A DNA stretch of 64,000 nt from an uncultured Cytophagales bacterium (GTDB taxonomy: Bacteria; Bacteroidota; Bacteroidia; Cytophagales; Bernardetiaceae), in the NCBI GenBank assembly GCA_963761725.1, contig CAVXHP010000006.1:445534-509533 (forward strand). The letters run 5' to 3'. Made by a program: the position numbers and the translations under genes. Shown piece after piece: positions 21,235 through 59,678 of the stretch. The notes under the pieces were generated by a model. That model made no database searches. It worked only from the letters and a program-made list of their open reading frames with translations, and was not told the origin of the DNA. Each line of letters opens with the position of its first letter. The stretch's first letter is position 1.

Positions 21235-21312
21235 CCATAACGTTGGGTTTGCAAACCCAACGTTATGGAAAAAATGCCGTTGTTGGTGTTTTAGCGAAGC
21301 GACACCAACAAC
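21235..21312. repeat. two REP-like palindromes: CCATAACGTTGGGTTTGCAAACCCAACGTTATGG (perfect 34-bp palindrome) and GCCGTTGTTGGTGTTTTAGCGAAGCGACACCAACAAC
   Basis: Seen directly. The second unit belongs to the same TTGTTGGTGT...ACACCAACAA family as 5174-5203 and 53739-53778. Confidence 0.7.
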
Positions 21313-41607: not shown

Positions 41608-42420
41608 ATGGCTAATCAAGAAACCACAACTCAACGTATTTATCGTACCATAGTACCTAAACTTACTAGTGTAGGTGCTTCCGTAGTAATTGTAGGAGCA
41701 TTATTTAAAATTATGCACTGGCCTTTTGCGGGAATTCTCTTAACTGTAGGACTTCTTACAGAAGCTTTCATTTTCCTTATGGGTGCTTTCGAACCTGCTC
41801 CACCTGCTGATCCTCACTATGAGTGGGAACGTGTTTATCCAGGTTTGGTAGATGCAAATGTGAAAGCCGTTGTAGCTAAAAAGGATGATCCTAATAAAGA
41901 CGTTGCTCTTATGGCTGGTCTTGACAAAATGTTGGGAGAGGCTAATCTTTCTGCTGATTCATTTAAGCGTTTCGGACAAGGCATTCAATCTCTAAATGAT
42001 ACAGCTACTCGCATGAAAAGTATCACAGAGGCAGTAAATTCTACGAATGATTATTCTAATAACTTGAAGGAAGCATCTAAATCGCTTACAAGTCTTAACT
42101 CTGCTTATTCTTCTACCGTATCTGCAATGGGCGAGATGTCTAATGCTGCTAAAGATGCTAAAGAATATCATACTCAAGTAAAAGCAATCACTAAGAACCT
42201 TGCTGGTTTGAATGCTGTATATGAAATGGAATTGAAAGATGCTAACAGTCACTTGAAAGCAATGAATAAATTCTATAGTAATCTTACTCAAGCTATGGAA
42301 AGTATGGCAGATGCAAGTAAAGAATCTTTAGTATTCAAAGAACAAATGTCTAAATTGACAACAAATATTACTACTCTTAATAAAGTATATGGTAATATGC
42401 TTACTGCAATGAAAGGTTAA
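41608..42420 (+). CDS. gldL: gliding motility / T9SS protein GldL (PorL)
   Basis: Two N-terminal TM helices (VGASVVIVGALFKIMHWPFAGILLTVGLLTEAFIFLMGAFEP) followed by a coiled-coil cytoplasmic domain. Confidence 0.9.
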   Translation: MANQETTTQRIYRTIVPKLTSVGASVVIVGALFKIMHWPFAGILLTVGLLTEAFIFLMGAFEPAPPADPHYEWERVYPGLVDANVKAVVAKKDDPNKDVALMAGLDKMLGEANLSADSFKRFGQGIQSLNDTATRMKSITEAVNSTNDYSNNLKEASKSLTSLNSAYSSTVSAMGEMSNAAKDAKEYHTQVKAITKNLAGLNAVYEMELKDANSHLKAMNKFYSNLTQAMESMADASKESLVFKEQMSKLTTNITTLNKVYGNMLTAMKG

Positions 42421-42500
42421 TTTTTAGTTCACTGAAACTGAAATTAGAATTCATTCTATAAAATTTTAAATATATTATTAACCAAAAACCATAAAAAACT

Positions 42501-44111
42501 ATGGCAGGTGGAGGAAAAGAGACCCCAAGGCAACGGATGATAGGCATGATGTACTTAGTACTTACTGCTCTCCTTGCCCTACAGGTTCAAAACGAAGTAC
42601 TAGAAAAGTTCTATTTTATAGATGCTAGTCTTCAAGATGCAAAAGAAGTTGGTCTTAGTACCAATGGTAAAATCATCACGTCGATGAGTGAGCAAATCAA
42701 GGATTCTGGTAGTAATCCAAGAGATTTGGCTATCTTAAAGAAAACTCAAGACATAAAAGATGAGTCAGTTAAGATGATAGAGCGTATTCAAGACATACGT
42801 AATAATATCGTTGAAGCAATGGGAGCAATGGATCCTGAAACAGGTGCTTATCCACAAGGTGATAAATACGATGACGTAAATCGTTTGATGCTTGGAACTG
42901 GAGAAAGTCAAAATGGATTTGCATTTACGTTACAAGACGAGCTTAATGCTTATGTAGCCAAAATTGCTGCTATTGACGATACACTAGGTCCAATCCTGAA
43001 AGGAGCTAACTTAATGCCTTTAGCAAAAGAGAAAGCTGACGAACCTCGTTATCAAGCTCCTAAGTATCAAGGAATGGAATGGGAACATATTAATTTCCAG
43101 AATACGCCAATGGTAGCCGCTCTTGCTGTACTTTCTCAACTACAAAACGATGTAGTAAAAGTAGAAACTAAAGCTGTTGATGCTATGCGTGGTCGTATTG
43201 GAGAATTCCAAATCAAATTTGATAAAGTATCAGCTATGGCTTCTGCTGAATCAAATACAGTTGCGGCAGGGACAAAGTACAAAGCCAAAATGTTTATTAG
43301 CGCTACTTCTACTACATTAGCTCCGAAAATGTCGGCTAGTGGTGCAGGTGCAGTACGTGTAGATGGAGACGGTGTTGGTACAGTAGAATTTACTGCTTCA
43401 GGTGGTACTACAGAAGGTGCTAAGAAAACTTGGCAAGGATCTATCACTATCAGAAATGCTGCTGGTGAAGATACTACTCTTACTGTGAAGCAAGAATATA
43501 CAGTTGTTTCTCCAGTAATTGAAATCGAATCGGGTACTATCAATTCACTTTACTTAAAGTGTGGTAATGATTTGAAGGTAAAAGTTCCTGCTCTAGGAGT
43601 GGAATATAATCCTTCATTTGGCGTAACTGGTGGAGATTATCAAGCTGGTAAAGGTGGAAAGGGAAGTATTATTATTATTCCTAATAGTAAAAGTGTTACT
43701 CTTAGTGTTTCTAGTGGTGGTAACAGCATTGGAACAAAGCAGTTTAGTGTTAAACTTATTCCTACTCCTACTGTTAAAGCGAGGGGATTAAATTTGAAAC
43801 AAGGTGGTGCATGTCCTCGTTCTATAACAGTAGATGCGATACCTGATGCTAGTTTTAAAGATCAACTTCCAAATGATGCTCGCTACAGAGTCACAGGTTT
43901 TACAGTTACTTTAGCTCGTGGTCGTCGTGTAGTTGGAAGCCCTGTGAGTTCAAATAGTCCAACAGCTGATATCAGCTCTTTAGGACAGCAAGCTAAAGAA
44001 GGTGATCGTTTAGTTATTGAAGTGAAACAGGTTCAACGTATGAACTTTAAAGGTGCAGTAGAAAATGTTTCTATGCCTACTGAATATATAAATTATTCTA
44101 TTTCTCAGTAG
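42501..44111 (+). CDS. gldM: gliding motility / T9SS protein GldM (PorM)
   Basis: N-terminal RQRMIGMMYLVLTALLALQV TM helix and a long periplasmic region with the GldM C-terminal domains. Confidence 0.9.
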   Translation: MAGGGKETPRQRMIGMMYLVLTALLALQVQNEVLEKFYFIDASLQDAKEVGLSTNGKIITSMSEQIKDSGSNPRDLAILKKTQDIKDESVKMIERIQDIRNNIVEAMGAMDPETGAYPQGDKYDDVNRLMLGTGESQNGFAFTLQDELNAYVAKIAAIDDTLGPILKGANLMPLAKEKADEPRYQAPKYQGMEWEHINFQNTPMVAALAVLSQLQNDVVKVETKAVDAMRGRIGEFQIKFDKVSAMASAESNTVAAGTKYKAKMFISATSTTLAPKMSASGAGAVRVDGDGVGTVEFTASGGTTEGAKKTWQGSITIRNAAGEDTTLTVKQEYTVVSPVIEIESGTINSLYLKCGNDLKVKVPALGVEYNPSFGVTGGDYQAGKGGKGSIIIIPNSKSVTLSVSSGGNSIGTKQFSVKLIPTPTVKARGLNLKQGGACPRSITVDAIPDASFKDQLPNDARYRVTGFTVTLARGRRVVGSPVSSNSPTADISSLGQQAKEGDRLVIEVKQVQRMNFKGAVENVSMPTEYINYSISQ

Positions 44112-46505: not shown

Positions 46506-47375
46506 ATGTCAACAAAAGAAAAATACTTAAATCCGTTTACTGATTTCGGTTTCAAAAAATTATTTGGTTCGGAAGTAAACAAAGATGTTTTAATTAATTT
46601 TTTGAACTCCATTTTACCACAAGAAGTAGAAATTACTCATCTTACTTACCTAAAAACAGAGCATATCGGACATTCTGAAATAGATAGGAAAGTAGTTTAT
46701 GATGTTTATTGTGAAAACAAAAAAGGAGAAAAATTTATTGTAGAATTGCAAAAAGCAAGACAGAAGTATTTCAAAGAACGAACTATTTTTTATTCTACTT
46801 TTCCAATTCAAGAACAAGCTATAACTGGAGATTGGAATTTTGAATTAAAAGCAGTTTATACTGTTTCTATTTTAGATTTTTTGATCGATGATAATTCTTA
46901 CGCAGCTAAAAAGAAAAAGATAGATGAAAATACCTCTGTCAAAACTACAGCTATGTTGATGGATATCGAAACGAAGGAAATATTTTATGATAAACTTACT
47001 TATGTGCAAATCCATATTCCACTTTTCGTAAAACAAGAACACGAACTAGAAACAATGGAAGATAAATGGTTTTATGTAATACGAAATCTACAACGCTTCC
47101 AAAATCGTCCTGCTGCTCTTCAAGAACGAATTTTTGATAAAGTTTTCAAAACTGCCGAACTTGCAAAGTTCAATAAAAAAGAAAGAATGGCGTATGAAGA
47201 CAGTTTAAAAAAATATAGAGATATTAAAAATATAGTTGATACCGCAAAAGAGGAACGAAGTATAAAGATTGCTAGAAACTTTCTCAAAGATGGTTTATCC
47301 ATAGAAATTATTGCAAAAAACACAGAACTTTCTATTGAAGAAGTCCAAGAAATAGCTAATTCATTAAAAGAATAA
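46506..47375 (+). CDS. Rpn-family recombination-promoting nuclease / putative transposase (YhgA-like PD-(D/E)xK)
   Basis: N-terminal NPFTDFGFKKLFG, PD-(D/E)xK core (DVYCE..KGEKFIVELQKA) and the typical C-terminal repeat domain ending SIEEVQEIANSLKE. Confidence 0.75.
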   Translation: MSTKEKYLNPFTDFGFKKLFGSEVNKDVLINFLNSILPQEVEITHLTYLKTEHIGHSEIDRKVVYDVYCENKKGEKFIVELQKARQKYFKERTIFYSTFPIQEQAITGDWNFELKAVYTVSILDFLIDDNSYAAKKKKIDENTSVKTTAMLMDIETKEIFYDKLTYVQIHIPLFVKQEHELETMEDKWFYVIRNLQRFQNRPAALQERIFDKVFKTAELAKFNKKERMAYEDSLKKYRDIKNIVDTAKEERSIKIARNFLKDGLSIEIIAKNTELSIEEVQEIANSLKE

Positions 47376-52021: not shown

Positions 52022-53722
52022 ATGGAATATCTAAGAAAATCGCTAATAAAATTATCTTCAATTACGAAAGTCACTTTGATGGCTACTTCTACTTTATTTA
52101 TTGTATCGTGTAGTACAAACAAGACAGGTAATTATGAAATGGCTGATACTGCTAATAATGAAGCTCTGGAAGATGTAGCTTCTTCTACTACCAGAATAAA
52201 TAGAAGTATAGAGAAAAAAGAGATGGCTATAGAATATGCTGAAAGTGAAATGTACATAGCCGATGAAATACAGCAAAACACAGAAGAATATCAAAAACAA
52301 GTAGAAAATAAATTTATAGAAGTCTCAAAAGAAGCCTTATCTACTTTTTCTATTGATGTTGATAATGCTTCGTATTCAAATGCTCGTCGTTTTATTCAGT
52401 CTGGACAGCTTCCAAATCCTGATGCTGTTCGTATCGAAGAGTTTATTAATTACTTTGATTACGATTATGAAAAACCAACAGGAAAACACCCTTTTTCAGT
52501 AAGTACAGAAATTTCGGTTGCACCTTGGAATGAAAAACACAAACTTGTACACGTCGGAATACAAGGAAAAGATGTAGATTATGACAATCTTGCGCCTTCA
52601 AATTTAGTGTTTTTGATTGATGCTTCTGGTTCGATGTCAGCACAAAATAAACTTCCTCTTCTTCGTTCTTCTTTAAAACTTCTTCTTTCTCAACTTGGAA
52701 AAAATGACCGTATTGCGATTGTAGCTTATGCAGGTGCAGCAGGTTTGGTTTTGGAATCTACTCCAGCAAGTGAAACAGAAAAAATTATAAAAGCATTAGA
52801 TGCCGTTTCTTCTGGTGGAAGTACAGCAGGAGGAGCAGGAATACAACTTGCTTATAGTTTGGCGAAAGATAATTTGATAAAAGAAGGAAATAACCGAGTT
52901 ATTTTGTGTACCGATGGTGATTTTAATGTAGGTGTAAATTCTCCAAAAGCCTTGGTAGAAATGATTGAAACCAAACGAAACGACGGAATTTATTTGACTG
53001 TTTGTGGTTTTGGAATGGGAAATTACAAAGACCATCAAATGGAGGAACTTAGTAATGCAGGTAATGGAAATTATTTTTACATTGATAATATTCAAGAAGC
53101 AAAAAAGGTTTTCGTTACACAGATGAGAGCTACACTTTTTACGATTGCTAAAGATGTAAAGATTCAAATAGAATTTAATCCTGCAAAAGTAGCAGCTTAT
53201 CGTTTGATTGGTTATGAAAACAGAATGCTACAAAAAGAAGATTTTAACGACGACAAAAAAGATGCAGGCGAATTAGGTGCTGGACATACTGTAACAGCAT
53301 TGTATGAAATCATTCCTATTGGTGTAAAAAGTGAATTTTTGCCTTCGGTAGATGATTTGCGTTACCAAAAAAATGGAAATAAAGAAGAGAATAAAATCAA
53401 AGAATCTTATTCAGCAGCAGCTTCTTCTGACGAATTATTAAACTTAAAATTACGTTACAAAAAGCCTAATGAAGACACCAGTAATTTGATTGTCAATCCA
53501 TTGAAAGATGATAACATTGCTTTAGAAAAAACTTCTGATAATTTTCGTTTTTCGGCTGCCGTAGCAGAATTTGGAATGATTTTGAGAAATTCAGAGTTCA
53601 AATCAAATGCTTCTTACAATCAAGTTATTGATTTAGCCAAAAATTCAAAAGGAAAAGATACAGAAGGCTACCGAGCAGAATTTTTGAAATTGGTAGAAAG
53701 CTGTCAATTGATGTCTAAATAA
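52022..53722 (+). CDS. von Willebrand factor type A domain lipoprotein (YfbK-like: vWA N-terminal domain + vWA + DUF3520-like C-terminus)
   Basis: Signal peptide/lipobox (LFIVSCS), FSIDVDNASYSNARRFI...EEFINYFDYDY N-terminal domain and the vWA MIDAS (DASGSM...TDGDFNVG). The ORF track starts at 51950; the ATG at 52022 gives a cleaner signal peptide. Confidence 0.8.
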   Translation: MEYLRKSLIKLSSITKVTLMATSTLFIVSCSTNKTGNYEMADTANNEALEDVASSTTRINRSIEKKEMAIEYAESEMYIADEIQQNTEEYQKQVENKFIEVSKEALSTFSIDVDNASYSNARRFIQSGQLPNPDAVRIEEFINYFDYDYEKPTGKHPFSVSTEISVAPWNEKHKLVHVGIQGKDVDYDNLAPSNLVFLIDASGSMSAQNKLPLLRSSLKLLLSQLGKNDRIAIVAYAGAAGLVLESTPASETEKIIKALDAVSSGGSTAGGAGIQLAYSLAKDNLIKEGNNRVILCTDGDFNVGVNSPKALVEMIETKRNDGIYLTVCGFGMGNYKDHQMEELSNAGNGNYFYIDNIQEAKKVFVTQMRATLFTIAKDVKIQIEFNPAKVAAYRLIGYENRMLQKEDFNDDKKDAGELGAGHTVTALYEIIPIGVKSEFLPSVDDLRYQKNGNKEENKIKESYSAAASSDELLNLKLRYKKPNEDTSNLIVNPLKDDNIALEKTSDNFRFSAAVAEFGMILRNSEFKSNASYNQVIDLAKNSKGKDTEGYRAEFLKLVESCQLMSK

Positions 53723-53738
53723 GGTCTAAATAAAAAGT

Positions 53739-53778
53739 GCTTTTGTTGGTGTCGCTACGCTAAAACACCAACAAAGGC
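53739..53778. repeat. REP-like palindrome GCTTTTGTTGGTGTCGCTACGCTAAAACACCAACAAAGGC
   Basis: Same TTGTTGGTGT / ACACCAACAA stem family as 21276-21312 (loop in inverted orientation) and 5174-5203. Confidence 0.65.
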
Positions 53779-53884
53779 AAGGAAAAAATAAAATGCACTT
53801 GTGAAAAACTAAAATCAATCACTAAATTTACCTATTTTTAATTTTTAAAAAGTCATTCCTAATATAAGATTAGGAATGATTTTT

Positions 53885-54631
53885 TTAGAGTTTAGGCTTT
53901 ACTTCTTTACAAAATTCAATAAATTCTTGAAAGCTCTTTAAATGTGACGGTTCTTCTTTTATTCGTTTGAGTAATTGCAATAAATAATCTTCTTCTTGAA
54001 CATATTTTGGTCTGCTTTTGCGATAAGCTTGTCCTTTTAATCGTTCTTTGAAAATTTCTCTTAGATAACTTTCGTGAAATAATGCCTTTGTAGCGTAGCC
54101 AAAAATACGATTTTGATTTTCATCATCTTCTATAAATTCGCTTGCTAATTTTTCTGGATCATTTTTGAAAATATCATAATAATTTATATACTCTTTCAAA
54201 AGTTCGTTGTGTGGCTGGCGAGGAAAAAACTTTCTATTTCCTAAAAACCAAGTTTCGATACAGACTTTCTGAACAATAATATGAAATTTGCAATTTGAGG
54301 GAAGGTTTTTATACTCATATTCATTTTCTGTTTTATCAAGAATCTTTTGAATAAATTCATTTGCTTCTTCTCTTTTTTCATCTATTGAAAGTGCATCAGC
54401 ATCTAAAAATAAAACCAAATAATCATATTCTGGAAACTCATTTATCTCTTGAATAGCATCTGCAACTATATTATAACAATTTGGAATCCCCATATCACTT
54501 TGATAATGATAGTTATTTTTTGTTACTTCATCATAACTCTTAACTTCTGATAGTTTAGGCAAAAGTATAGAAAACCATTTTTTGTAAATAATGGGTTCTG
54601 TTTTTCCTTCAAATACAAAGTAAAAATTCAT
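53885..54631 (-). CDS. Toprim-like DUF4276-type protein (predicted nuclease partner of the upstream ATPase)
   Basis: 248 aa. N-terminal FVFEGKTEP (Toprim-type EGxTE glutamate) and LVLFLDADA (DxD) motifs. 5-bp gap from the ATPase gene on the same strand. Confidence 0.55.
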   Translation of the reverse strand: MNFYFVFEGKTEPIIYKKWFSILLPKLSEVKSYDEVTKNNYHYQSDMGIPNCYNIVADAIQEINEFPEYDYLVLFLDADALSIDEKREEANEFIQKILDKTENEYEYKNLPSNCKFHIIVQKVCIETWFLGNRKFFPRQPHNELLKEYINYYDIFKNDPEKLASEFIEDDENQNRIFGYATKALFHESYLREIFKERLKGQAYRKSRPKYVQEEDYLLQLLKRIKEEPSHLKSFQEFIEFCKEVKPKL

Positions 54632-54636
54632 AGCTT

Positions 54637-55752
54637 TTAATACTGATTTTCCAAAAGTTCGGTAAGTTGAATAAATGCTTTTTGTTTTGACTTGCCTAGT
54701 TTGTATTCAGAAGCATTTTTTGCCGAAATTACACCAGCCTTACGAGTTACAATTTTCCAATATTGATAAGGAAGCGCATTGATAATATACGGATGATGGC
54801 TTGTTGTAATAAATTGTATATTTTTATTTTCGTGGATAAGGTCTTCTGTCAGAATATCCATACAATTTGTTCCCAAGCTATTTTCAAATTCATCAATCAA
54901 AATAACAGAACCATCATTTGCCAAATAAATTTGAGCAATATGAATAATTGTACGCAGCATTCCAGAAGAAATATACTTTGCTTCAATTTCTCTTGGAACA
55001 CCTTTTTCTCTTATAGAAATAGTAATTTCCATAAAATTTTCTAGAACAGATTTGTACTTTCCTGCTACACGTACATCTTCTAATTGAGGAAAAGCCTCTA
55101 ATATTCTTCTTACTATTGAATGGCAAACATCTAAATTTGAAGCAAACGCTAAGTACAATTTAATTAAAATATCTTCATCACTATTTTTTATCAAGTCAAT
55201 TTCTATGTTTTTATATTTTTGCTCTAAATTAAAGAGTGAAATATCAAATGATTTTTCTCCTATTTCTTTTTTAGTATAATCATTCATTATTATTTTACGA
55301 AAGCCACTAACTATATTTTTTATATGAATATCTTTTTTTAGTAGAAAAAGTAGAGATTGATTATCTGGCAAATGAGGAAGTAAATTATCATTAAATTTTA
55401 TACTTTCTACATCTCTATTTATGATAAGTTCATCCTTGAGTCTTAAATTTTCAAATAAAATATTTCCTTCTTCCTTTTTTTCTCTCAAACTTATATAATG
55501 TATTTCTTCAATAACTGAAAATTTACCCTCCCAAACGTATTCATCTTCCTCTATCAAAAAAATTATTTTCCATTCAAATCCATTTACAGATTTTCCCTCA
55601 ATAATTCTTTTCAGATTATAAATAGATTGCAAAATTTGTGTCTTTCCCACACCAGAAAGCCCAACCAATAAAGTAGGATTGGTGTCAAACTGTATTTCTT
55701 CTAATTCCCAGCCTAATAAATGATTTTTGGCTTGTATGGATTTGATTATCAT
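54637..55752 (-). CDS. AAA_21 / ABC-type ATPase of the OLD-like family
   Basis: Walker A GLSGVGKT, ABC-signature-like ISSGMLR, Walker B ILIDEFENSLG and H-loop TTSHHP, with no transmembrane or transporter partner. Confidence 0.7.
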   Translation of the reverse strand: MIIKSIQAKNHLLGWELEEIQFDTNPTLLVGLSGVGKTQILQSIYNLKRIIEGKSVNGFEWKIIFLIEEDEYVWEGKFSVIEEIHYISLREKKEEGNILFENLRLKDELIINRDVESIKFNDNLLPHLPDNQSLLFLLKKDIHIKNIVSGFRKIIMNDYTKKEIGEKSFDISLFNLEQKYKNIEIDLIKNSDEDILIKLYLAFASNLDVCHSIVRRILEAFPQLEDVRVAGKYKSVLENFMEITISIREKGVPREIEAKYISSGMLRTIIHIAQIYLANDGSVILIDEFENSLGTNCMDILTEDLIHENKNIQFITTSHHPYIINALPYQYWKIVTRKAGVISAKNASEYKLGKSKQKAFIQLTELLENQY

Positions 55753-55883
55753 TATTGTTGATTTTATAAACTAATCTCTTACCCTAATTTCGTCAAAATA
55801 TCTCACAAAACAAAAGTAACATTTCTCTACTAGAAAAATGTTACTTTTTTTTAAAATCAAAATGGATTATTTACTTACAAATC

Positions 55884-58800
55884 TTAATCTCTCAAAATAG
55901 TAAGCCAATTTTTATAGGTATTATTTCTGTATTTGATTAAGAAATAATATTGACCTGAAGAAGCATTATCTCCATCCCACTCAAAATTGCGGTCTTTACT
56001 TTCGAAGAGCAATGTTCCCCAACGGTTATAAATTTCTACGCTCTGAAACTGGTCGTTACAATCATCTTCTGGAAGATTTGGAACAAAAAATGTATCGTTG
56101 AGTCCATCATTATTTGGCGTAAATACATTAGCAGGCTTAAAGTCAAGATTTACGGAAGCATCTTCTACAATAATAGTGAGTATTTTTGGAGTAGAAGCAC
56201 GCAAACCACAACGAGTAGTATCAGAAGCTGTAAAGACAACTTTAAATTCTTTTCTGAACGTTCCTTCTAAAATATCACACTCTGGAGTCCAAGTAAAATC
56301 ACTTTGAAGAATTGGAAAACCTCTTTTATTTTCATATTGCATTCCAAAATCTGACAAATTAAAGCCAACACCACGAGCTGACAAATCCAATCTATCTCCA
56401 TCGTTATCATTGGCAAGAGACGGAATAATTAGTTCTCGTCCTATTGTTGTTCGAACAACAAATTCATTTGGATTAGTAGTAGAAACTGAATCTATGTTTT
56501 GAAGCTCTAAAGTAGGAGGCGTATTTCTTGGATCGACAGTCAAGTCAAAACGAACTCGTATTGTATCTGTATAAATGACATCACAATTAGCAATATCAGT
56601 AACAATAAACTCAGCAACATAAGAAGTATCAGCATTCTGAAAACCAAGATTAGAACATGAAGGTTGCCAGCTAAACTCACTTATAAGATTAGGCGAACCG
56701 AATACATCCTCAAAACTCATATTCAAATCAGCAAAATTAAATCTTACACCATTTCCCTTCAAAGAAAGAAAACTATTATCTACATCTTCTCCAGTTACAT
56801 CAAAACGAACTACCTCATCTACCCGAACAGGACGAATATACAAATCTTGTGCAGCATCAAAAGTAAGATTTGCCGAAATTTCGGGTTCACGATTTGGATT
56901 TCTTTCGTACACTAAAATAAGTTTTACTCTGACTGTATCTCCTAATGATTCTTGACATTCATTAAAATCTCTAGTAATAAAATCAATCAAAAATTCTCTT
57001 CTAGGATTTGCGACAGGATTATTACCCAAATATTCACACAGCGTTTGCCAATTAAAGGTACTTTGGATAGGAGCAAAACCACTTACCTCTGGGAAAGTCA
57101 TTCCAACATCTGAAAGATTAAATCCTACTCCCTGTGCATACAGAAGAACACTGTCATTTTGAGCATCAAGTCCAAAAACATCAAAATTAATCGCATCGCC
57201 TACAAAAACAGTATCTACAAAAACATTTTCAAGAGCATTAAAAGTAGTTATTTCTGGTCTTGTTTCTGGTGCTGTATTATTTGGATCTGGAGGTAATACC
57301 ACCAATCGCACATCAATTTCTTCTTCTAATGAACCTTCACAAGTATTAAAATCCCTTACTCTGAATTTCAGATTTATTGGAACTCCAACAGGTATATTTG
57401 TTTGTTCACAGGTTGTGTTCCACACAAAATCAGTTGTCAAAATTGGTCTTCCACTTACTGTTCCGAATTGCATTTGATATTGAGTAAAATTAAATCCTAC
57501 TCCGTTTCCTGTAATTTGAATACTATCTCCATTTTGGTCATTACCTGTAAGTGTAAAACGATACGACTCTCCCAAAGTAAGCGTATCATAATATATTCTG
57601 GCAACAGAATCATAAGGAATAGAAGCTATAATGGTAGGTTTAATATTTGTACGAGGACTAAGAACTACACGCACTTTAATCTGTTTTGTAGAATCTGCAT
57701 TTCCACAATCATCATAATCTGTTACCCTAAAATCCATAATAAAAGTCTGTGGACGAGTAGGGTCTTGCAAATCTTGACAACTTGTATTCCACAAAAACTT
57801 AGAATTTATACTTCCAATTCCCTGTAAAGGAGAATATGTAATTGCCCTTCCAGCACGAGTAAAGTTTTCAGGAGTAAAAACAATACTCAAACTATCATTA
57901 TCTACATCAGTAGCATTTGTATTAAAATCAATTATTTCTCCTACAAAAACACTATCATATACATATTGATTCGTTGCAGCATCGAAAGTAAGGTTTGTAC
58001 TAATATTTGGTGCACGATTTTCTATCGTATCTTTTACTACTTTGATTTTCAGACAAGTTTGTACGCTTTGATTAGCATCACATTTTCTCTTATCGGTCGT
58101 AGTAAAACTAACATCAAATGTTCTTTCTGTTTCGTTTGGTGCTAATGTATTACAATCAGGACTCCAAAGAACTTGTCCTCTCAAGACAGGAACTCCTTGC
58201 CTTGCTCCTGTAAAACTTGCTCCTGCTGGCAAACCTGTTACGGTAATATTCAAAGAATCACCATTTGGGTCATCGGCTGTTGTATTGATTATCAATTGTT
58301 TGCCTGCTACTACTTCTTTTATATAACAATTTGTAATAGGGTCAAAGGTAGCATCAGTAACAAAAGTAGGCGGTCTATTGGGAGGACTTCGAACAAGCAC
58401 ATTTACACGAATAGTATCTAAAAGAGGAACTGCACAACTATTATCCAAAACAATGAAATCCATGATATAAGGTTTGTTTGGATCATTTGGATCTAAAGGA
58501 CATTCTGGAAAACAAACATTCAGAGATAATTCATCACCTTGTCCACTTATATTTCCCCCATTTTGCAGCAAAATACCACTTGCATCGGTAAAGTTAATAG
58601 GCTTTACTCGTGCAGTAATTACTGTATTTGGGTCAGAATCTGTAACAAAGAGATTTCCACATTTATCTTCGTTGGGGTCAAGAATAATTGTTGTTCCCTC
58701 TACATAACGAGTTGGCTCTGCATTCGCCTTAAAAGCTACGTTTGGTTTTGTAGCTGTCGGACAATCAATTACCAAAAGCTGATAATCCCTTCTTACCTCT

Positions 58801-59678
58801 CCTATTTTTACTCCATTTCTATATTCATCTACGGCAATTGCAAAAACGAAAAGTCCTGTCCTAGATGCTGTGAGAGAAAGAATCCCGTTACTATCTATTC
58901 GTAATGGAACACTACCTGGTACCATATTATTCAATCCTATTCCTGGTATAAAATTTACTGTTGAATAAGGAGCCGAGCTAGGTACATCTGGACGAGGTTG
59001 GTCGGCAGTACTACTACCGTTGATTGGAACAGTAAGACGATAACGAAGCTCATCACCATCTGGATCTCTACCACTAAAATCAAAGAAAAAAGGCTGATTA
59101 ACACATACATAATCACTAAGCGGTGGAAAAATTTCAGGTTCAGAATTGATGAATGGTCTTCTATTTCTATCCAATAATGCTGGAAATTCCAAATACATAG
59201 TCAGTCCTGCATTTTCTGGTTGAATTATATTACTAATAATATTATTTCTACAACAACGTTCCCAAACCATATAATACCCATCTTGATCATCGAAGAGATT
59301 TCTATTAAATGTAATATCACGTGCATAATAAATGCGTCGAACCAACAAATTACCAACCGCACAATCAGGATCAGTGTAAGGAACTGGTCTATCAGATACA
59401 CGAGGAATCTCTAATCGCAATACCAGTTGATTAGTTCGCTTAGAAAAAATACCTATGATAGCCGAAGCTCCAATTGCACCTGGATTTCCATTTACAGCAT
59501 CAAAATATTTTACCATTCCGACACGATATATATCTCCTCTGACATGTACAAACTCTAATTCTCCTCCAACAATATGTGTTGCAGAAGCTGAAAAATTTAC
59601 TAAAAGAAGTAAAGTAAATAAAAACGATAGAAAAACAAGTCGTTTTTTGGATAAGCTAGTGTAGATTAAATTTTTCAA
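55884..59678 (-). CDS. giant T9SS-sorted cell-surface repeat protein (adhesin-like; gliding-motility-associated C-terminal domain)
   Basis: 1264 aa. Signal peptide, at least six tandem ~110-aa Ig/cadherin-like repeats (N[RT].P...TFDA..N.Y......VGE.I.F...GSD.DNDSL...G.GF pattern) and a C-terminal type-B T9SS sorting domain (FTPNNDGLNDTFFVPNL...IYNRWGTLLFES...WDGD). The antisense ORFs inside it are spurious. Confidence 0.85.
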   Translation of the reverse strand: MKNLIYTSLSKKRLVFLSFLFTLLLLVNFSASATHIVGGELEFVHVRGDIYRVGMVKYFDAVNGNPGAIGASAIIGIFSKRTNQLVLRLEIPRVSDRPVPYTDPDCAVGNLLVRRIYYARDITFNRNLFDDQDGYYMVWERCCRNNIISNIIQPENAGLTMYLEFPALLDRNRRPFINSEPEIFPPLSDYVCVNQPFFFDFSGRDPDGDELRYRLTVPINGSSTADQPRPDVPSSAPYSTVNFIPGIGLNNMVPGSVPLRIDSNGILSLTASRTGLFVFAIAVDEYRNGVKIGEVRRDYQLLVIDCPTATKPNVAFKANAEPTRYVEGTTIILDPNEDKCGNLFVTDSDPNTVITARVKPINFTDASGILLQNGGNISGQGDELSLNVCFPECPLDPNDPNKPYIMDFIVLDNSCAVPLLDTIRVNVLVRSPPNRPPTFVTDATFDPITNCYIKEVVAGKQLIINTTADDPNGDSLNITVTGLPAGASFTGARQGVPVLRGQVLWSPDCNTLAPNETERTFDVSFTTTDKRKCDANQSVQTCLKIKVVKDTIENRAPNISTNLTFDAATNQYVYDSVFVGEIIDFNTNATDVDNDSLSIVFTPENFTRAGRAITYSPLQGIGSINSKFLWNTSCQDLQDPTRPQTFIMDFRVTDYDDCGNADSTKQIKVRVVLSPRTNIKPTIIASIPYDSVARIYYDTLTLGESYRFTLTGNDQNGDSIQITGNGVGFNFTQYQMQFGTVSGRPILTTDFVWNTTCEQTNIPVGVPINLKFRVRDFNTCEGSLEEEIDVRLVVLPPDPNNTAPETRPEITTFNALENVFVDTVFVGDAINFDVFGLDAQNDSVLLYAQGVGFNLSDVGMTFPEVSGFAPIQSTFNWQTLCEYLGNNPVANPRREFLIDFITRDFNECQESLGDTVRVKLILVYERNPNREPEISANLTFDAAQDLYIRPVRVDEVVRFDVTGEDVDNSFLSLKGNGVRFNFADLNMSFEDVFGSPNLISEFSWQPSCSNLGFQNADTSYVAEFIVTDIANCDVIYTDTIRVRFDLTVDPRNTPPTLELQNIDSVSTTNPNEFVVRTTIGRELIIPSLANDNDGDRLDLSARGVGFNLSDFGMQYENKRGFPILQSDFTWTPECDILEGTFRKEFKVVFTASDTTRCGLRASTPKILTIIVEDASVNLDFKPANVFTPNNDGLNDTFFVPNLPEDDCNDQFQSVEIYNRWGTLLFESKDRNFEWDGDNASSGQYYFLIKYRNNTYKNWLTILRD

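Follow-up and report, generated by a model that had tools for sequence, protein, structure and literature searches.

An unnamed ABC ATPase-Toprim gene pair from a Bernardetiaceae genome, probably a defence or toxin-antitoxin cassette, with a hypervariable region in its ATPase

Two-gene modules made of an ATP-binding cassette (ABC) ATPase and a stand-alone Toprim protein are a recognised class, which includes PARIS (with a DUF4435 protein), AbiL/RloAB (RloB), MADS3-4 (DUF4276) and HEC-01. PARIS is a toxin-antitoxin pair of a sensor ATPase and a tRNA nuclease. AriA sequesters AriB, and when a phage trigger binds the pocket of the AriA insert, AriB is released and tRNA is cleaved (PMC11464382, PMC10802264). 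AbiL is the second precedent for an ABC ATPase paired with a Toprim protein (PMC13064643). Here we describe a gene pair of this class in the DNA of an uncultured Cytophagales bacterium of the Bernardetiaceae (GenBank assembly GCA_963761725.1, contig CAVXHP010000006.1, positions 445,534 to 509,533 of the forward strand). This whole stretch of 64,000 nucleotides is called the window, and all positions refer to it. By sequence comparison, the pair is an unnamed relative within the class and meets the curated threshold of no named system. It consists of:

54637..55752, minus strand: ABC-type (AAA_21) ATPase of 371 residues, the proposed sensor/regulator subunit (from Pfam, PADLOC, AlphaFold2 and Foldseek)
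53885..54631, minus strand: Toprim-like protein of 248 residues, the proposed nuclease effector, of the DUF4276/RloB/AbiLii superfamily; core at about residues 1-131, conserved C-terminal half at about 136-248

The ATPase gene comes first; it ends with its own stop codon, and the small gene begins after a spacer of 5 nt. A preliminary description of this DNA had placed the two open reading frames (ORFs) at these positions, on the same strand and 5 bp apart, and the ORF check bore this out. The pair is probably a defence or toxin-antitoxin cassette. More specifically, the analogy with the described systems makes it likely that this is a mobile cassette in which the ABC ATPase and the Toprim nuclease work in a PARIS/AbiL-like, phage-triggered manner.

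The first gene product is a soluble ABC ATPase that belongs with the SMC/Rad50/PtuA-like defence ATPases and not with transporters. In an alignment of 30 homologues its motifs were conserved as follows:

55639..55662, minus strand: Walker A/P-loop G31-L-S-G-V-G-K-T38; G31, S33, G34, G36, K37 and T38 invariant
54958..54969, minus strand: ABC signature S262-S-G-M265; S263, G264 and M265 invariant, S262 at least 90% conserved
54889..54903, minus strand: Walker B I284-L-I-D-E288, followed by the D-loop FENSLG; I284-LIDEFEN invariant
54793..54804, minus strand: H-loop T317-S-H-H320; invariant

The full set of conserved ABC catalytic motifs is present, and the protein is predicted to be catalytically competent. 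The Pfam AAA_21 profile (PF13304) matched residues 27-325 with 47.8 bits against a cutoff of 27 and was covered completely (positions 2-304 of 304), in agreement with the AAA_21 type assigned in the preliminary description. ABC_tran stayed below its cutoff (22.2 against 25) and matched the P-loop region only (residues 27-84), while SMC_N (25 bits) and RecF (E 3e-4) gave weak matches. In PADLOC, AbiLi came first (6.6e-19, 66 bits; residues 27-350 against positions 79-265 of 326 in the profile), and further matches were PDC-M25A, the AriA model (4e-13), HEC-01A (2.7e-12) and PtuA. The match to the AriA model is probably a generic AAA_21 match, since its coordinates are the same as those of Pfam AAA_21 (2-304 of 304).

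The AlphaFold2 model of the ATPase (pLDDT 85, on the scale of the predicted local distance difference test) contains a compact insert of mixed strands and helices. In a Foldseek search, the solved folds closest to this model were PtuA, known from Septu and from retrons, and Rad50 (E 1e-12 to 1e-10), and neither transporter nor AriA structures were among the top 50 matches. There is no permease gene near the ATPase gene. A subunit of an ABC transporter was rejected on the sub-cutoff ABC_tran match, the missing neighbouring permease, the PtuA/Rad50 folds in the top 50 and the neighbours themselves, an adhesin and a vWA/YfbK protein. Grouping with transporter ATPases had been named beforehand as an outcome that would speak against the assignment; neither the profiles nor the top 50 folds put the protein there.

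The second gene product is probably a Toprim-type, metal-dependent nuclease, as judged from three acidic motifs and their place in the predicted fold:

54596..54610, minus strand: Toprim glutamate motif E8-G-K-T-E12, right after strand 1 (residues 3-7 in the model); E8, G9 and E12 invariant in 38 relatives
54395..54403, minus strand: Toprim DxD motif D77-A-D79, at the end of strand 3 (residues 71-77); D77 invariant in the distant relatives, D77, A78 and D79 in the close set
54248..54256, minus strand: second acidic motif E126-T-W128, after strand 4 (residues 115-121); E126 and W128 invariant in the distant relatives

The distant relatives are 38 proteins with 30-65% identity and the close set contains 35; in a profile search of the whole library, 672 cluster representatives reached E 1e-3 or better. 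Eleven residues are invariant in the 38 relatives (E8, G9, G48, E12, D77, E126, W128, P159, E160, H186 and Y189). The AlphaFold2 model has an overall pLDDT of 78; over residues 1-120 most values are 85-97, falling to 77 at residues 41-50. Its core has four strands alternating with helices, and places E8/E12 after strand 1, D77-x-D79 after strand 3 and E126 after strand 4. The Toprim assignment was made because this strand order and the conserved acidic motifs match the published Toprim signature, whose definition includes DUF4276 and RloB (PMC12065111). All motifs quoted in the preliminary description, namely Walker A, signature, Walker B and H-loop of the ATPase and EGKTE and DAD of the small protein, were found and are conserved among the homologues.

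The family assignment of the small protein was less sharp. Its sole Pfam match was DUF4276 (PF14103), with 24.0 bits (E 5.3e-5) over positions 2-117 of the 192 in the profile. Thus the earlier claim of a Toprim/DUF4276 protein holds for the Toprim motifs, the fold core and the existence of a DUF4276 match, and falls short in that this match does not reach the cutoff of 30.2. A complete lack of Toprim/DUF4276 profile matches, the other outcome named beforehand as speaking against the assignment, did not occur. With E allowed up to 0.01, DUF4276 was also found in 16 of the 35 close and 21 of the 38 distant relatives (best 1.8e-8). The sole PADLOC match of the window protein was AbiLii (E 0.0022, 16.7 bits). 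When the 38 distant relatives were scanned singly, AbiLii matched 32, RloB (PF13707) 20 and DUF3226 six (RloB/AbiLii best 1e-6), and HEC-01B models matched up to 12 per model (best 1.7e-7). The window protein itself gave no match to Pfam RloB, Toprim-OLD, DUF4435 or HNH and none in NCBIfam, where MADS4 was matched by one of the 38 relatives, weakly (3e-4). Sequence and profile searches against PDB chains returned chance matches only, such as S100-A12, and the contig index contained no exact copy. The small protein belongs to a distinct subfamily between DUF4276, RloB/AbiLii and DUF3226, and is a peripheral relative of DUF4276.

The C-terminal half (about residues 136-248; window 53885-54290) holds the invariant P159, E160, H186 and Y189. 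It is 90-93% identical to the Bernardetia relatives, against 85-87% for the N-terminal half. None of the profiles scanned matched this half, and the DUF4276 and AbiLii matches of the window protein end by residues 141 and 131, respectively.

We compared the pair with each of the described systems. AbiL of Lactococcus lactis (AbiLi and AbiLii) and RloAB of Campylobacter share the adjacent arrangement of an AAA_21/Rad50-like ATPase gene followed by a small RloB-type Toprim gene; AbiLi is the best PADLOC match of the ATPase and AbiLii the commonest among relatives of the small protein. However, the window protein reaches AbiLii at E 0.0022 only, has no Pfam RloB match, and its C-terminal half is left unmatched. 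Moreover, this family occurs in Bacteroidota and Cyanobacteria rather than in Firmicutes and Campylobacter, and no restriction-modification (R-M) locus surrounds the window pair.

PARIS (AriA and AriB, class 4 OLD-like) also has its ABC ATPase split from its Toprim nuclease, and carries between its ABC halves an insert which, as here, is the proposed recogniser of the trigger. In contrast, AriB is a DUF4435 Toprim protein, and the small protein gave no DUF4435 or AriB match at E up to 1. AriA is a 55-kDa protein with coiled-coil legs, whereas the window ATPase has 371 residues and a compact insert, and AriA is outside its top 50 folds. PARIS is often found on phages and satellites, and this family is essentially absent from viral collections. 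Membership in PARIS was rejected on the missing DUF4435/AriB match and the compact ATPase.

HEC-01, a PADLOC candidate embedded in Hma systems, has the same two-gene domain architecture and its HEC-01A model matches the ATPase; HEC-01B does not match the window's small protein at E up to 1, and no Hma context was seen. MAD3-MAD4 of MADS likewise combines an AAA_15/21 ATPase with a DUF4276 Toprim protein (PMC11464382 Fig. 6c; PMC12065111). Here the difference is large: NCBIfam MADS3 gave 16.4 bits where its cutoff is 420, the window protein had no MADS4 match and no other mad-like genes were seen nearby. With the mandatory mad6-8 not seen in the locus, MADS membership was rejected.

The OLD proteins of classes 1-3 (P2 Old, Gabija GajA and the retron-associated class) share the ABC ATPase and the Toprim nuclease with its acidic metal-binding site. 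They are single polypeptides, unlike the two genes found here, which gave no Pfam Toprim-OLD match and have no UvrD or reverse transcriptase partner nearby. A single-chain OLD was rejected on the stop codon, the 5-nt spacer and the absence of a helicase or reverse transcriptase gene nearby. The preliminary description had read the pair as a split OLD; the two-gene ATPase/Toprim architecture stands, but it belongs to the already recognised class of PARIS, AbiL, RloAB, HEC-01 and MADS3-4. Septu (PtuA and PtuB) was rejected as well: PtuA models and structures match the ATPase, but its partner carries the motifs of Toprim and gave no match to HNH. PH0156 of Pyrococcus horikoshii (PDB 2p62, DUF3226, the family matched by six of the 38 relatives) is 10% identical and gives fold information only. 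Finally, an 'unnamed two-gene system in Nostoc sp.', credited to Makarova 2011, is counted in the class as well. It is plausible that this system belongs to the same family, given the many close Nostocales homologues.

The two genes are almost always found together. In a scan of one genome per species (185,579 species) we found 396 loci, about 0.2% of the genomes. Most are in Cyanobacteria and Bacteroidota, and others are scattered in Planctomycetota, Acidobacteriota, Actinomycetota, Nitrospirota and Pseudomonadota. Homologues of the ATPase and the small protein occur on the same contigs, and in 79 of the 80 loci fetched the small gene is immediately preceded by an ATPase homologue on its own strand. 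The sole exception is a Saprospiraceae metagenome-assembled genome (MAG; locus L036, 5833-6705), in which only the last ~38 ATPase codons are left and the loss of 1 nt from a T-run at codon 4 shifts the small gene out of frame. This could be a decayed cassette, or a long-read homopolymer or assembly error leaving an orphan nuclease.

The two closest relatives are a Bernardetia MAG (L007), whose small protein is 89% identical, and a Logan contig (L008). DNA homology between the window and L007 spans 53881-55826 and stops at the cassette edges. In both relatives a Type ISP R-M enzyme (PF18135, 911-936 residues; L007 1155-3965, L008 2964-5699) lies divergently beside the cassette, at the place taken by the adhesin gene in the window. 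To look at the flanks more widely, the nearest gene on each side of 61 non-redundant loci was scanned with Pfam. The 121 neighbouring proteins fell into 157 Pfam families, mostly housekeeping, and the flanks differ between lineages. Seven PLSDB plasmids carry the family, including roughly 10-kb ones of Proteus, Methylovorus and Acinetobacter. On the plasmid of Proteus terrae (L091, NZ_CP152081.1, 9989 bp) there is little beyond the cassette and rep genes; its ATPase is annotated as two overlapping coding sequences, suggesting a frameshift, and the small-protein accession occurs twice in the record. From the homology borders, the flanks and this distribution we conclude that the two genes make up a cassette which is self-contained and horizontally mobile. 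It is not phage-borne, since the family is essentially absent from viral and phage collections.

In all comparisons the small protein was better conserved than its partner ATPase. Between the window and the Bernardetia relatives, the small proteins are 88% and the ATPases 66-73% identical; against cyanobacterial and other Bacteroidota pairs the values are 63-66% and 50-53%. The shortfall lies wholly within one segment of the ATPase, delimited by comparison of identity and of synonymous divergence (dS):

55006..55518, minus strand: hypervariable ATPase middle, residues 79-249, the proposed trigger-recognition module

Between the window and the two Bernardetia relatives, residues 250-371 are 99.2% identical with a dS of 0.21-0.26, while residues 79-249 are 35-50% identical with a dS of about 1.2 and a nonsynonymous divergence (dN) of about 0.5. 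Two Dolichospermum loci (L023 and L019) have nucleases of 99.6% identity and ATPases with 91% identity in the N-terminal and 92.6% in the C-terminal part, yet 59% in the middle. Between L011 and L008 the nuclease is 97% identical, the N-terminal part of the ATPase 74%, the C-terminal part 100% and the middle 36.5%. The same divergence was observed in Floridaenema, Prochloron and Synechococcales pairs, so it recurs across independent lineages. The unequal dS along the ATPase gene points to recombinational exchange of the middle segment. A variable module within a conserved two-protein machine fits what would be expected of a sensor under antagonistic selection, and this hypervariability supports a function in conflict independently of homology.

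Based on these features, the cassette may work as follows. In analogy to AriA/AriB of PARIS and to AbiL, from which we infer that the proteins form a complex, that the small one is an active nuclease, that a trigger is sensed and that phage is countered, the ATPase and the nuclease would form a complex in which the ATPase keeps the nuclease inactive. A phage-derived trigger would be recognised by ATPase residues 79-249 and, together with ATP binding or hydrolysis, would release or activate the nuclease. The nuclease could then cut host or phage nucleic acid, either tRNA or DNA, and the infection would be aborted. In the absence of phage, the pair would behave like a toxin-antitoxin system by the same logic. 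A broader proposal is more tentative. The family may represent unnamed PARIS-like immune sensors, mainly of Cyanobacteria and Bacteroidota, in which residues 79-249 are a specificity domain that recombination exchanges repeatedly, leaving ABC core and effector unchanged. The alleles might each answer to a different phage trigger, and the Toprim effector, with its additional C-terminal half, its own substrate, possibly tRNA.

Several observations weigh against a phage-triggered defence cassette. The small protein is below every curated threshold (DUF4276, RloB, AbiLii, HEC-01B, MADS4 and DUF4435), and its residues 130-215 were modelled by AlphaFold2 at low confidence. HEC-01, the closest candidate that has been tested, did not protect E. 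coli (bioRxiv 10.1101/2024.01.29.577857). The neighbours in the window and in the relatives are mostly housekeeping genes and lend no guilt-by-association support; no enrichment of defence genes was found among the 121 neighbours of the 61 loci. No relative was found in IMG/VR, and GenBank phages contributed one unannotated 4.2-kb 'Bacteriophage sp.' contig. Furthermore, the cassette keeps a syntenic position within some cyanobacterial lineages, beside dxr in Dolichospermum/Anabaena and beside a gene taken as gidA in six other cyanobacteria, which fits long residence over rapid turnover.

The same facts can be read as a selfish toxin-antitoxin or addiction cassette without a role against phage, in which the nuclease is the toxin, the ATPase the antitoxin, and the pair maintains itself on plasmids or chromosomes by post-segregational killing. 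Tight bicistronic coupling, near-obligate linkage, residence on roughly 10-kb plasmids with little beyond replication genes and the lack of a defence-island context all speak for it, and NetFlax counts pairs of AAA and Toprim_OLD proteins as toxin-antitoxin systems (PMC10440598). In L036 the loss of the ATPase coincides with a frameshifted nuclease gene; however, this frameshift lies in a T-run and may be an assembly error. Addiction leaves unexplained why hypervariability and recombination are limited to the ATPase middle, a pattern typical of sensors under antagonistic selection, and it is compatible with defence, PARIS being both. We therefore consider pure addiction unlikely. Another proposal is an accessory module of an R-M or methylation system, partly functional alone, such as RloAB in type I R-M or MAD3-MAD4 in MADS. 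DUF4276 is the domain of MAD4, RloB is found in type I R-M loci, the cassette stands beside a Type ISP enzyme in the two closest Bernardetia relatives, and an MmeI-type enzyme is ~4.7 kb off in Anabaena azotica. Yet the window has no methyltransferase or restriction gene within ~8 kb of the pair, no R-M family recurs among the 121 neighbours of 61 loci, and the cassette moves as two genes only. MADS3 reached 16 bits where 420 are required, and MADS4 was weakly matched in one of 38 relatives and not by the window protein. We regard such a module as very improbable.

A housekeeping or DNA-repair pair, loosely comparable to RecF-RecR or to SbcC with a nuclease, would account for the weak SMC_N (25 bits) and RecF (E 3e-4) matches, for Rad50 among the structural neighbours and for the position beside gidA or dxr kept within some cyanobacterial clades. 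It is hard to reconcile with a patchy, cross-phylum distribution in ~0.2% of species genomes, a small protein that is 60-65% identical between Bacteroidota and Cyanobacteria, variable flanks and occurrence on plasmids. A hypervariable domain would also be unexpected in a repair enzyme, and we regard a repair function as hardly credible. The PARIS/AbiL-like cassette triggered by phage is thus the reading that we favour.

The pair looks like a separate bicistronic unit, as it is enclosed by two terminator-like hairpins:

53853..53879, minus strand: hairpin with T-run, terminator-like, 6 nt past the stop codon of the small gene
55812..55848, minus strand: terminator-like hairpin of the upstream adhesin gene
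55753..55826, minus strand: 74-nt leader upstream of the ATPase gene, probable promoter region, inside the DNA homology block shared with L007

The leader travels with the cassette and is a probable candidate for the promoter region, and the small gene is probably translationally coupled to the ATPase gene. A sigma-70 promoter scan, which did not include Bacteroidota promoter models, gave nothing above shuffle expectation. GC content is 24-29% across the pair region, like that of the remaining window. The Rfam scan of 53000-56500 found no family near its gathering score in or around the pair, so the cassette is without a known RNA component. A repeat search over the cassette found neither direct nor inverted repeats at its ends, as would be the mark of a transposon; apart from the two terminator hairpins it returned the REP-like (repetitive extragenic palindrome-like) hairpin and nothing else.

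The genes around the pair encode peptidases, the vWA/YfbK protein, a flippase, GldL/GldM, the CHU_C adhesin and an ion-channel-like membrane protein. The 'typical defence-island setting' of the preliminary description did not hold up against these surroundings, and the 61 relative loci are alike in this respect. The surface adhesin is a 1264-residue protein (55884-59678) with a CHU_C type IX secretion domain. The REP-like unit by the pair is a hairpin at 53743-53774, with the cassette on one side and the convergent vWA/YfbK gene on the other, and has a second copy at 21280-21311. The two copies share the palindrome TTGTTGGTGT-N12-ACACCAACAA and have its loop in opposite orientations; chance would predict no copy in the window. 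The Rpn C-terminal-type ORF (62331-62633, plus strand, 100 residues) has no Pfam match of its own and is 39% identical (E 8e-17) to residues 213-287 of the protein encoded at 46506-47375 (plus strand), a full-length PDDEXK_2 (Rpn/transposase-like) protein.

Towards the window end, a tricorn/S41-type peptidase gene is split into overlapping ORFs (62704-63174 and 63140-63982, both minus strand) and exceeds the window. Tricorn_C1, PDZ and the beginning of S41 fall in one ORF and the remainder of S41 in the other; the split reflects a frameshift, a pseudogene or an error in sequencing. GldL and GldM of gliding motility/type IX secretion are encoded at 41608-44111 and, with the CHU_C adhesin, fit a Bacteroidota (Cytophagales) host. 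Among the relatives, the cassette of six loci (L063, L068, L070, L074, L080 and L088), from cyanobacteria of several families, is divergent beside one shared upstream gene, taken as gidA/mnmG on the basis that six neighbours match GIDA and six cluster together. RtcB RNA ligase accounts for three neighbours in the wider set. Both gidA and RtcB are related to tRNA/RNA, and plain synteny is possible.

The architecture and the likely logic of such pairs are already well described, and the conceptual gain is small in this respect. The most notable feature is the hypervariable, apparently swappable insert of the ATPase. Current tools would probably miss the family because the small protein is sub-threshold in Pfam and NCBIfam and weak in PADLOC, and because RefSeq names are generic; the homologous pair of Bernardetia sp. 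Wsw4-3y2 is labelled 'ATP-binding protein' and 'hypothetical protein'. With effectors and ABC cores that are almost the same and middle domains that differ widely, the family amounts to a natural experiment, in which domain swaps could map the specificity for the trigger. Few defence systems have been tested in Cyanobacteria and Bacteroidota. If active, the pair would give both phyla a further family of defence or toxin-antitoxin systems, including the bloom-forming Dolichospermum, Microcoleus and Planktothrix.

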